Positions 15,182 to 15,690 of a stretch of DNA of 35,141 nucleotides are shown in pieces. Source of the DNA: a virus; IMG/VR virus record IMGVR_UViG_3300025902_000010, positions 1-35,141 of that record, one strand, 5' to 3'. Under the pieces are notes generated by a model, which saw nothing but the letters and a program-made list of their open reading frames with translations, was not told the DNA's origin and ran no database searches. The position numbers and the translations under genes were made by a program. Every line of letters starts with the position of its first letter. Positions within the stretch are counted from its first letter, which is position 1.

Positions 15182-15690
15182 CGGCTGTTAAATGCGAGAC
15201 ACCGCCCCAACGGGTTACGGTGTCTCAATGGTCGGCATGTTAGCCGGCGTGCAACAGGGAGCGACCCTGTAATTACAACATGCAGGCTGGTTCCCTCATT
15301 CGTCACGAGGGTGATGTAAAACAGCCTGCAATATTTGCTCCGGTAGGGATTTTCACCCGTTTTTCAGTTGGCGTTTACCCGTGCGCCTTTTACGCTCGGA
15401 GCGGATTTGCCGATGCTTCACGGCGTTGCATATGCACCATCGAAGCGGAGCGGCGACAGAACGGTAACCTGCTAATTCATGCGTCAGGATTTGAACCTGA
15501 TTTACCCGTGAGATAGGCGTGTAGAGACGCCTCGTTTTACTTGCTGGTAGCCGAACACAAACCCGACAGCTACGGCTCGCCCGCTCGGTATGCACTTTCT
15601 ACAAGTACCGGACAAGTTCTCTCACGGCTGATTAGGTGTTCCCACCACGCCGCGCATGAATGTTAAGGAACTAAGCGTTAGAACCCACTC
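15182..15690 (-). ncRNA. candidate large structured noncoding RNA (about 0.5 kb), unclassified
   Basis: This is the only long stretch without a credible ORF in an otherwise gap-free genome. GC is normal, unlike the adjacent AT-rich region. It holds many perfect helices (listed in the findings). Helix extensions by G.U exist only on the minus strand. A possible extended -10 (TGCTATTAT, minus strand) sits at 15692-15700. Confidence 0.5.
15475..15661 (-). ncRNA. tRNA-like (tRNA-mimic / tmRNA-like architecture) module, 187 nt; not a canonical tRNA
   Basis: Minus strand: a 9-bp closing helix ATTCATGCG (15661-15653) / CGCATGAAT (15483-15475). It abuts a canonical T-arm, TCAGG-TTCAAAT-CCTGA (15500-15484). 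A 5-nt GTAAA linker follows. An 8-bp helix CCGTGAGA (15627-15620) / TCTCACGG (15513-15506) encloses about 105 nt of hairpins. There is a GGTG-GGAA-CACC GNRA hairpin (15646-15635). Confidence 0.55.

Follow-up and report, generated by a model that had tools for sequence, protein, structure and literature searches.

A tRNA-framed RNA in a viral genome belongs to a widespread family of structured phage RNAs with a conserved junction core

The window analysed here is the complete 35,141-nucleotide (nt) IMG/VR virus record IMGVR_UViG_3300025902_000010, in which all genes lie on the minus strand. Downstream of a gene for a DNA polymerase exonuclease subunit (15898-16854) and an open reading frame (ORF) of 58 codons, the minus strand carries at 15661-15475 an element of about 187 nt that is framed like a transfer RNA (tRNA), with a 9-bp closing helix, a D-like hairpin, an 8-bp helix (P1) and a canonical T-arm. 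The element is followed by 285 nt of more structured RNA, an A+T-rich stretch with a strong promoter-like site, and the Erf recombination module; the DNA polymerase exonuclease subunit, small ORFs, a tail fibre and Erf make up the coding neighbourhood. An initial annotation, made from the letters of the window, had claimed this frame, including a GTAAA linker before the T-arm, and had placed a structured domain where the anticodon arm would be. The frame is present in the sequence and in the unconstrained fold, and the claim about the domain was borne out as well. The element belongs to an RNA family that is widespread in phages and absent from Rfam 15, a tRNA-like or tRNA-associated stable phage RNA with a distinctive core.

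The coordinates of all features are given in Table 1. The inner 7 bp of the closing helix (TCATGCG/CGCATGA) correspond to acceptor positions 1-7 and run directly into the 5-bp T stem with its T-psi-C-type loop, as in a canonical tRNA, and this stack covaries. The core common to the family consists of P1, the junction GAGA(A/C), a P2 domain that varies by subfamily, a junction ending in AACGA, the P3 hairpin, and a UA that returns to P1. P3 is built of GGCG, an 8-nt loop NYNNNNCN and CGCC; among the IMG/VR loci described below, the loop is 6-8 nt long and variable in content. The window has the P1/P2/P3 junction, the J2/3 strand ending in AACGA, P3 as GGCG-N8-CGCC and UA as J3/1. Two pairings that had been drawn inside the domain were not upheld by the comparison with homologs. 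The GTAGC...GCTAC hairpin is not conserved, and homologs keep a GCCG/CGGC stem (P2b) around an almost invariant 19-nt loop; in place of TACTTG/CAAGTA they keep AACTTGT/GCAAGT (P2) and GTACTT/AAGTGC (P2a). By eye, the P2b stem covaries (GCCG/CGGC, GUCG/CGAC, GUCA/UGAC), the computed count of 63.6% paired being blurred by the register of the alignment.

Table 1. Features of the element and of the adjoining structured region, in 5' to 3' order of the minus strand
Feature	Position	Strand	Basis
Acceptor-like closing helix, 5' strand ATTCATGCG	15661-15653	minus	unconstrained fold; 7/7 pairs compensatory, 97.6% of cells paired (18 homologs)
D-arm-like hairpin GGTG-GGAA-CACC	15646-15635	minus	fold; 4/4 pairs covary, 83% paired
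Conserved single strand UAAUCAG, between D-like hairpin and P1	15634-15628	minus	(T/G)AATC(A/G) in 18/18 framed homologs
P1, 5' strand CCGTGAGA	15627-15620	minus	fold; compensatory at 8/9 pairs (subfamily alignment) and 7/7 (framed alignment)
Junction J1/2 (GA), then P2 5' strand ACTTGT	15619-15612	minus	GAGA(A/C) conserved after P1; P2 compensatory at 6/9 pairs in subfamily
P2a hairpin GTACTT-GTAGA-AAGTGC (stem strands 15608-15603 / 15597-15592)	15608-15592	minus	subfamily alignment
Near-invariant single strand AUACCGAGCGGGCGA of P2 domain	15591-15577	minus	invariant or nearly so in 11 subfamily members from different phages
P2b, stem GCCG/CGGC (15576-15573 / 15553-15550) closing the conserved 19-nt loop UAGCUGUCGGGUUUGUGUU	15576-15550	minus	subfamily comparison
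P2, 3' strand GCAAGT	15544-15539	minus	fold and subfamily alignment
Family signature: junction J2/3 (AAAACGA), P3 hairpin GGCG-TCTCTACA-CGCC, junction J3/1 (UA)	15538-15514	minus	about 98 distinct elements
P1, 3' strand TCTCACGG	15513-15506	minus	fold and covariation in both alignments
Variable-loop-like linker GUAAA	15505-15501	minus	3-6 nt in homologs
T-arm TCAGG-TTCAAAT-CCTGA	15500-15484	minus	5/6 stem pairs compensatory; GG/CC closing pairs conserved
Acceptor-like closing helix, 3' strand CGCATGAAT, perfect complement of ATTCATGCG	15483-15475	minus	fold and covariation
Downstream G+C-rich structured region	15474-15190	minus	fold z = -3.2; outside the conserved family

The unconstrained minimum free energy fold of 15475-15661 (minus strand) reproduces all listed helices at -69.0 kcal/mol, compared with -56.1 +/- 4.7 for shuffled sequences (z = -2.7; 1 of 200 dinucleotide shuffles folded as well). 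However, the opposite strand folds about equally well (z = -3.0), and the T-loop consensus GGTTCRANYCC is present at least once in 35% of shuffled windows. Because of this, the window sequence alone should be regarded as weak evidence for the element, and the decisive evidence is comparative. It comes in part from the type A homologs, in which P1 is extended by the tRNA-like frame. When 20 of these were folded singly with RNAfold, the closing helix formed with at least 7 pairs in 15, most of P1 in 16, and P3 in 19.

For covariation in the frame, 18 homologs were aligned. Since MAFFT mis-registered the terminal helices of the raw framed sequences, the segments were registered by hand and padded with N, and this register was then kept by MAFFT. 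In the resulting alignment, 96.7% of the cells are paired versus 64.7% in shuffled alignments, although the percentage is inflated by the fitting to the structure by hand. Sliding the partners by 1-3 columns reduces pairing to 32-48%. Changes on both sides were found at 23 of 28 pairs (acceptor-like helix 7/7, P1 7/7, T stem 5/6, D-like stem 4/4), and none of 500 shuffles reached the observed values. The shuffle control and the independent single-sequence folds mitigate the bias of the hand registration and argue that the signal is real. Compensatory conservation of the 9-bp and 8-bp helices had been set as the test of the frame by the initial annotation, and both of these helices covary at every pair scored in this alignment, in distant phages. 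The D-like hairpin of the homologs has a stem of 3-5 bp and a loop with GG, some homologs possess a true class-II D arm (TGGCGGAATAGGTAGACG), and a canonical T loop of 7 nt is found in 7 of the 18.

The inner module was aligned separately, using a covariance model (R1) built from 11 members of the window's subfamily including the window itself. Here, 89% of the cells are paired and 23 of 38 pairs show changes on both sides, which again no shuffle reached. The P3 stem does not vary in either alignment. With the window among its members, R1 finds one copy in the window (15505-15628, minus strand; 107 bits, E ~1e-23); against the frameless loci of type D it gives full-length matches of 45-150 bits. 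On the element's strand, the paired cells contain 30 G.U versus 13 A.C combinations.

The subfamily alignment also revealed a contact between two loops. The P2a loop GUAGA (15602-15598) is complementary to UCUAC (15525-15521) in the P3 loop, and this helix is 100% paired with changes on both sides at 4 of 5 positions; the combinations found are GUAGA:UCUAC, GCAGA or GCAGG:UCUGC, GCGGA:UCCGC and GUACU:AGUAC. A consistent complement of the P3 loop was not found by inspection in CUS-3, in SR and type D, in L010 or in the mini forms, so the contact can be claimed for the window's subfamily alone. Other members have complementary loops at a different place. In the CUS-3 group (L002, L018, L063, L066, L103, L037), the T loop is non-canonical, 8-9 nt long with the sequence (A)GAUCAGC(A/G), and the D-like loop GGCUGA can form 5 bp with it (GCUGA:UCAGC). 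The corresponding loops of phage SR, GGCGG and UAUUCGCAC (UUCGCAC), have a 4-bp complementarity. These sequences suggest that the contact at the tRNA elbow is kept by different means in the CUS-3 group and SR, namely as a Watson-Crick loop-loop helix. Overall, we have very little doubt that the RNA family and its fold are real.

Megablast searches of phage sequences with the element region and with 25 kb of the window gave no match. Only blastn in distant mode recovered short conserved blocks. With it, the inner 104 nt of the window element showed 77.5% identity to a non-coding stretch of Rhodococcus phage REQ2, and a block of 30-36 nt (GTAAAACGAGGCGTCnnTACACGCCTATC) was found to recur in the P22-like coliphages CUS-3, IME10 and Huey, in the Acinetobacter phages SR and NL, and in one Pseudomonas phage. 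An exact-pattern scan of IMG/VR with AACGAGGCG-N8-CGCCTA yielded at least 119 loci, about three quarters of which are non-coding elements of the tRNA-framed RNA family. After removal of duplicates and coding false positives, about 98 distinct elements remain among the matches listed. The known sources are IMG/VR contigs and phages of Escherichia, Acinetobacter, Rhodococcus, Aeromonas and Pseudomonas. An independent scan with GCATACCGAGCGGGC added ten members to the window's subfamily. The P3 signature is present in each of them, and in one (L246/L257) it has one change in the stem.

The pattern of the first IMG/VR scan was also used to search bacterial genomes, where nearly all of 120 matches lie in G+C-rich coding DNA (encoding NEA..RAY peptides). 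Five are real, among them matches in a Microbacterium chromosome, a Saccharibacteria metagenome-assembled genome and a Phaeospirillum genome. The CUS-3 form is present in prophages of 119 of 5,426 complete E. coli genomes, the type strain ATCC 11775 among them, while the window element itself has no match in E. coli genomes. In the 12 E. coli matches listed (e.g. NZ_CP033092.2, 1536697-1536914), the Prokaryotic Genome Annotation Pipeline (PGAP) has placed no annotation, and the record of Escherichia phage Huey labels the CUS-3-type RNA (PQ850609.1, 35178-35395) a hypothetical protein. No description of the motif was found in the literature, whether by keyword or by sequence string. The family may be contained, unnamed, in the large catalogues of viral structured-RNA candidates, whose supplements lay outside this search (PMC10690425).

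The members differ in how the core is embedded. About 20 elements, including those of the window, CUS-3 and SR, belong to type A. Their order is a closing helix of 7-9 bp, a linker of 2-6 nt, the D-like hairpin, the strand (U/G)AAUC(A/G)(G) and P1; on the 3' side, a linker of 3-6 nt after P1 leads to a T-like hairpin that directly abuts the 3' strand of the closing helix. One type A group has an unmistakable class-II tRNA D arm (TGGCGGAATAGGTAGACG) together with canonical T loops. Elements of the REQ2 type and of type D end at P1 and are frameless. Type B is a circular permutation that directly abuts tRNAs: its termini lie in P2 (in L034, CACCGGAG pairs with CTCCGGTG), and P1 is capped by a linker ACGAACGAC, a hairpin and GUAAUCAG, with the UAAUCAG strand kept as GTAATCAG. 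From this layout it follows that the hairpin and the UAAUCAG strand are part of the conserved core, but that the T-arm and the acceptor helix are not. Finally, there are mini forms of 57-95 nt, which occupy spacers within tRNA arrays, as in L055, where the spacer between tRNA-Ile and tRNA-Lys measures 57 nt. The initial annotation had described the element as a tRNA-like module with an insertion of ~105 nt. Since the core recurs without T-arm and acceptor helix in the REQ2-type, type D, type B and mini elements, this view has to be reversed: the "insertion" is the functional unit and the tRNA-likeness is accessory.

Two further observations concern these layouts. The P2 domain of some members holds a complete tRNA. 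This is the case in the type A elements L063, where ARAGORN calls tRNA-Pro(cgg), and L078; in L077 it is a tRNA-Met-like gene to which an intron is assigned, and in L092 the acceptor stem of a full tRNA doubles as P2. In these four, tRNAs are nested within a tRNA-like frame. The type B loci L034, L062, L080 and L109 share a non-coding block (...GACGGAGTAATTACCCTGAGGGTC.TCAACTAGC...) about 150 nt upstream of the element, which ends in a T-arm and an acceptor-like 3' strand and is not called as a tRNA by ARAGORN or Rfam. It may be another unusual tRNA-like RNA.

The genomic context links the family to tRNA genes. Every one of the 38 tRNAs that ARAGORN found within 500 nt of an element lies on the element's strand. 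In REQ2, the element is located inside a tRNA array and flanked by one tRNA gene and two tRNA-Ser genes. In CUS-3 it lies between the genes for the Q antiterminator and the holin, a slot that is occupied by tRNA genes in related phages (PMC8022706), and in SR it lies within a gap of 780 nt. No tRNA adjoins the element in the window or in CUS-3. An all-against-all clustering of 733 ORFs from about 100 loci did not reveal any recurrent neighbouring protein family; the clusters are lineage-specific only, for instance the lysis genes of P22-like phages.

Several known classes of RNA were considered. ARAGORN with default settings finds neither a tRNA nor a transfer-messenger RNA (tmRNA) at the element. 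In the whole window, Rfam 15 at gathering thresholds gives only an unrelated tRNA match at 5420-5492; at E <= 10, the region 14800-16300 gives only four chance-level matches of 14-21 bits, the tRNA model not being among them. A scan of eleven homologous loci yielded tRNAs only. None of the Rfam 15 families, including ROOL, GOLLD, Drum, hammerhead, twister, pistol, hatchet, C4 and IsrK, was reached at the element. A canonical tRNA is excluded, as no anticodon arm can be drawn and ARAGORN and the Rfam tRNA model are negative. When ARAGORN was relaxed (-ps90, intron option), it called the frame a tRNA with a 114-nt intron at position 32, with anticodons that are inconsistent across homologs. An intron-bearing tRNA was rejected nevertheless, because the circularly permuted and tRNA-flanked forms are incompatible with an intron; there is also no Intron_gpI or Intron_gpII match, and the exons have no anticodon arm when joined. 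The statement of the initial annotation that the element is neither a tRNA nor a tmRNA therefore agrees with ARAGORN, with Rfam (Infernal) and with the intron and tmRNA options at the default threshold.

The tRNA-like domain of tmRNA resembles the element in its acceptor/T-arm stack and in the long structured RNA at the position of the anticodon arm. It differs in having G3.U70, a tag reading frame and a series of pseudoknots. As had been noted, pair 3:70 of the window element is A-U, a tag frame is absent and the element is only about half the size of a tmRNA; with the negative ARAGORN and Rfam results, this led us to discard tmRNA. The likeness to tmRNA or Y-like RNAs that had been proposed holds for the acceptor/T stack with its long extension, but not for the topology of YrlA/Y RNA. 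YrlA RNAs have D-, T- and acceptor-like elements, are substrates for RNase P, the CCA-adding enzyme, TruB and DusA, and also occur in phages; their 5' and 3' ends form a Ro-binding stem with GNCGAA(N)G, a loop caps the acceptor-like stem, and the Rsr gene lies within 4 kb on the same strand (PMC4201824). In the window, the ends form the acceptor-like helix itself and the conserved core is a different one; with its opposite topology, its different motif and no adjacent Rsr (TROVE) gene, the element is not a YrlA/Y RNA.

The theta ribozymes of gut phages, which resemble the ribozyme of hepatitis delta virus (HDV), are small structured RNAs immediately next to phage tRNA genes; they make use of tRNA end-processing or stand in for it, and the frameless members of the present family are similarly placed (PMC10879173). 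The window copy, in contrast, has no adjacent tRNA; no HDV-type Rfam match was found, and manual mapping to the nested double pseudoknot did not give a matching helix order. The hammerhead, HDV-like and twister layouts do not fit the junction by inspection, in agreement with Rfam, and Pas small RNAs were excluded by comparison with the literature. ROOL and GOLLD are structured RNAs of phages and prophages with unknown function, which are often found near tRNA genes (PMC5737381). They are larger (~580-800 nt) and occur mainly in other phyla. Drum, likewise a structured RNA of phages and prophages, is followed by a terminator and tied to particular genes. Cmscan gave no ROOL, GOLLD or Drum match at the element or at the homologous loci.

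The nearest analogue is the species 1 RNA of phage T4. T4 species 1 (rnaC) and species 2 (rnaD) are small stable RNAs inside the phage tRNA cluster and on the tRNA strand. The 3' end of rnaC is a canonical T-arm (CCGGG-UUCGAAU-CCCGG) followed by an acceptor-like strand, and elongated arms replace the cloverleaf. We know of no function for either RNA. Neither rnaC nor rnaD has sequence similarity to the present family, an AACGA-GGCG...CGCC-UA hairpin or a UAAUCAG strand, and they are confined to T4-like phages, whereas the present family spans phages of several phyla. The other analogue is artificial. In the engineered tRNA scaffold, an RNA of interest replaces the anticodon arm, and the cell processes and stabilises the product like a tRNA. 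The architecture of the window element is of the same design; however, it is natural, and the conserved 7-nt strand and the D-like hairpin also belong to its payload.

The surroundings of the element in the window contain several other features. The downstream region 15474-15190 has a near-identical counterpart in the metagenome contig L282, in which two 3' hairpins carry compensatory changes (CGGC/GCCG to CGGG/CCCG and GAGACACCG/CGGTGTCTC to GAGAGAGCCG/CGGCTCTCTC). Apart from L282 there is no homolog among about 120 loci, and an exact-pattern scan was empty. This stretch could form a structured RNA of its own, or it could be transcribed with the element as the 3' part of one RNA. A possible extended -10 element (TGCTATTAT) is seen by inspection about 30 nt upstream of the closing helix, but was not called by the promoter scan. 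Between the structured RNA region and the next genes, 14690-15170 is an A+T-rich non-coding stretch of about 480 nt. Of the promoter-like sites in the region, the best one lies here (14804-14777 on the minus strand; TTGACT and TATACT spaced by 16 nt, and a TG upstream of TATACT). By eye, the stretch also has several short repeats such as tcgattat and taggtgat; an early promoter or an origin is a possible function. A plus-strand site made up of the complement of P3 followed by CGTTTTAC (15515-15532) scored as terminator-like, and weak IsrK-like Rfam matches occur here and in L020. The T run of this site is absent in other subfamilies, and the score arises from the conserved P3/AAAACGA sequence and does not indicate a terminator on the plus strand. 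The Rfam tRNA match at 5420-5492 (minus strand; 38.6 bits, gathering score 29), which ARAGORN does not call, overlaps the 3' end of ORF 5398-6051, which encodes a Mom-like DNA-modification protein. The homology of this protein ends at residue 189 of 217, where the tRNA-like sequence starts. The Rfam match is spurious, or else the ORF runs through a genuine tRNA gene.

How might such an RNA work? To be explained are the covarying fold, the permuted forms and the association with tRNAs, which lie on the element's strand. Among the members, the tRNA features range from authentic to vestigial, and they vanish when the core is flanked by tRNAs or permuted; we therefore read the frame as a scaffold. 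A natural tRNA scaffold with a junction as its payload is, taken as a whole mechanism, a reading to which we give an even chance. The acceptor/T stack would let host RNase P remove the 5' leader at the base of the acceptor-like helix, tRNA 3'-end enzymes would trim the trailer, and CCA might be added. The product would be a stable, exonuclease-resistant RNA with paired termini and an L-shaped body. For the frameless junctions, the processing sites would be supplied by neighbouring tRNAs. The payload would be a rigid junction, locked in the window's subfamily by the loop-loop contact, that displays the invariant P3 stem and the junction nucleotides. It may act in trans on a component common to Actinobacteria, Proteobacteria and others, such as a part of the tRNA or translation machinery, or a small molecule. 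As no partner protein of the phage is apparent, the counterpart of the payload is probably a host component or a small molecule.

Several points weigh against this reading, besides the alignment that was fitted by hand. The closing helix of the window has 9 bp instead of 7, position 8 is not U, the D-like hairpin and P1 are separated by 7 nt instead of 1, and no CCA is encoded at the 3' end. A tRNA lies within 120 nt of 3 of 20 framed and of 21 of 78 frameless elements, a difference that is not significant and relies on ARAGORN, which misses many phage tRNAs. It is thus not demonstrated that the frame substitutes for flanking tRNAs. Moreover, we infer the processing by tRNA enzymes (RNase P, RNase Z), and the nature of the payload's target is a guess. 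A more far-reaching proposal, which we regard as doubtful, is that the conserved junction forms a new functional class of RNA, acting as a ribozyme or by binding a small molecule or a protein. Phages of many bacterial phyla would use it in trans, mounted on tRNA frames or inserted into tRNA arrays, and have it made by the tRNA-processing enzymes of the host. Its target might, for example, be a universal host factor or an immune signalling nucleotide that the RNA sequesters.

Other functions have to be weighed against the scaffold. Phage tRNA genes can counter anticodon nucleases, and the element could be a decoy whose L-shaped frame baits or competitively inhibits tRNA-targeting defence nucleases or tRNA-modifying enzymes of the host and so shields the tRNAs of phage or host. 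The frame is indeed tRNA-like and covarying, and the element is phage-borne and located with phage tRNA genes. However, the junction and P3 are conserved most, not the frame, and many members have neither acceptor helix nor T-arm. The P3 loop, with its 6-8 variable nucleotides, is also unlike a 7-nt anticodon loop and is occupied by the internal loop-loop contact in the window's subfamily, so we consider the decoy a speculation and unlikely. A small self-cleaving or otherwise catalytic RNA that matures neighbouring tRNAs would account for the three-way junction, the conserved junction strands, the tertiary loop-loop contact and the natural circular permutation, traits that hammerhead and twister ribozymes share. 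The position of frameless members within a few nucleotides of tRNA 3' ends has a precedent in the theta ribozymes (PMC10879173). On the other hand, no Rfam ribozyme matches even at E <= 10, neither the hammerhead core (CUGANGA/GAAA) nor the HDV-like helix order could be mapped by inspection, the window and CUS-3 have no adjoining tRNA, and cleavage within the frame would split the RNA. We judge such an activity to be quite unlikely. The many unpaired nucleotides that are invariant across phages of very different hosts, together with the lack of a protein partner encoded nearby, would also suit an aptamer acting in trans, in which the junction pocket binds a widespread metabolite or signalling nucleotide as a sensor or sponge. 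The architecture resembles three-way-junction riboswitch aptamers, which are held by kissing loops. Nevertheless, an expression platform is lacking, the element does not regularly precede a gene, the P2 domain that would shape the pocket differs between subfamilies, and the context does not suggest a ligand; this makes an aptamer very unlikely.

Three more explanations concern the extent, the assembly and the origin of the RNA. The module could be the 5' domain of an RNA of about 470 nt (15661 to ~15190) that works in cis with the downstream region, as in the nucleation domain suggested by the initial annotation; this region folds well (z = -3.2) and has the two hairpins with compensatory changes in L282; no strong terminator separates the two. 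We give this very little credence, because the downstream region has no counterpart at other module loci, as the empty exact-pattern scan also indicated, and the module recurs alone in many contexts. A self-assembling RNA, in which the P2a and P3 loops pair between molecules to form a multimeric particle, would likewise produce complementary loops that covary, since covariation is blind to the difference between intra- and intermolecular pairing. The pRNA of phage phi29 forms rings through such loop pairing between molecules. ROOL and GOLLD, which are also associated with phages and tRNAs, form RNA-only cages (PMC5737381, PMC12286853). But the RNA is small and unrelated in sequence to pRNA, ROOL and GOLLD, and the loop complementarity is seen only in the window's subfamily and not in CUS-3, L010 or the mini forms, so that assembly of this kind appears highly improbable. 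The last candidate is a decayed tRNA gene, or a tRNA fragment of the attP type, without a function of its own. Phages often carry tRNA fragments, and the T-arm motif arises by chance in shuffled windows at the frequency given above. Yet compensatory changes maintain five helices across phages of different phyla, and the 3' strand, which covaries in 18 homologs, pairs in every homolog with the element's own 5' strand 170-250 nt upstream. No integrase gene was found among the neighbouring ORFs, and there is no E. coli match, where the search covered E. coli genomes and not the tRNA set of the real host. A copy of a host tRNA end, which the initial annotation had named as the finding that would overturn its proposal, is thus rejected, and the explanation by decay is effectively refuted.

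To our knowledge, phage-encoded structured RNAs without a protein partner are rare, and T4 species 1 and 2, ROOL and GOLLD have been unexplained for years. The family described here is tractable. Its members measure 60-250 nt and have a clearly bounded conserved core, and the three natural topologies (framed, circularly permuted and minimal) together show which parts matter. Tractable hosts are available as well, with P22-like prophages such as CUS-3 in E. coli and with phages of Acinetobacter and Rhodococcus. At present, annotation pipelines leave the region of the element blank or call it a hypothetical protein, as in Huey. If the frame serves biogenesis, the element would be the natural counterpart of the tRNA scaffold of biotechnologists. 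If the proposed scaffold mechanism is true, phages would exploit the tRNA-processing enzymes of their hosts for RNAs other than tRNAs.

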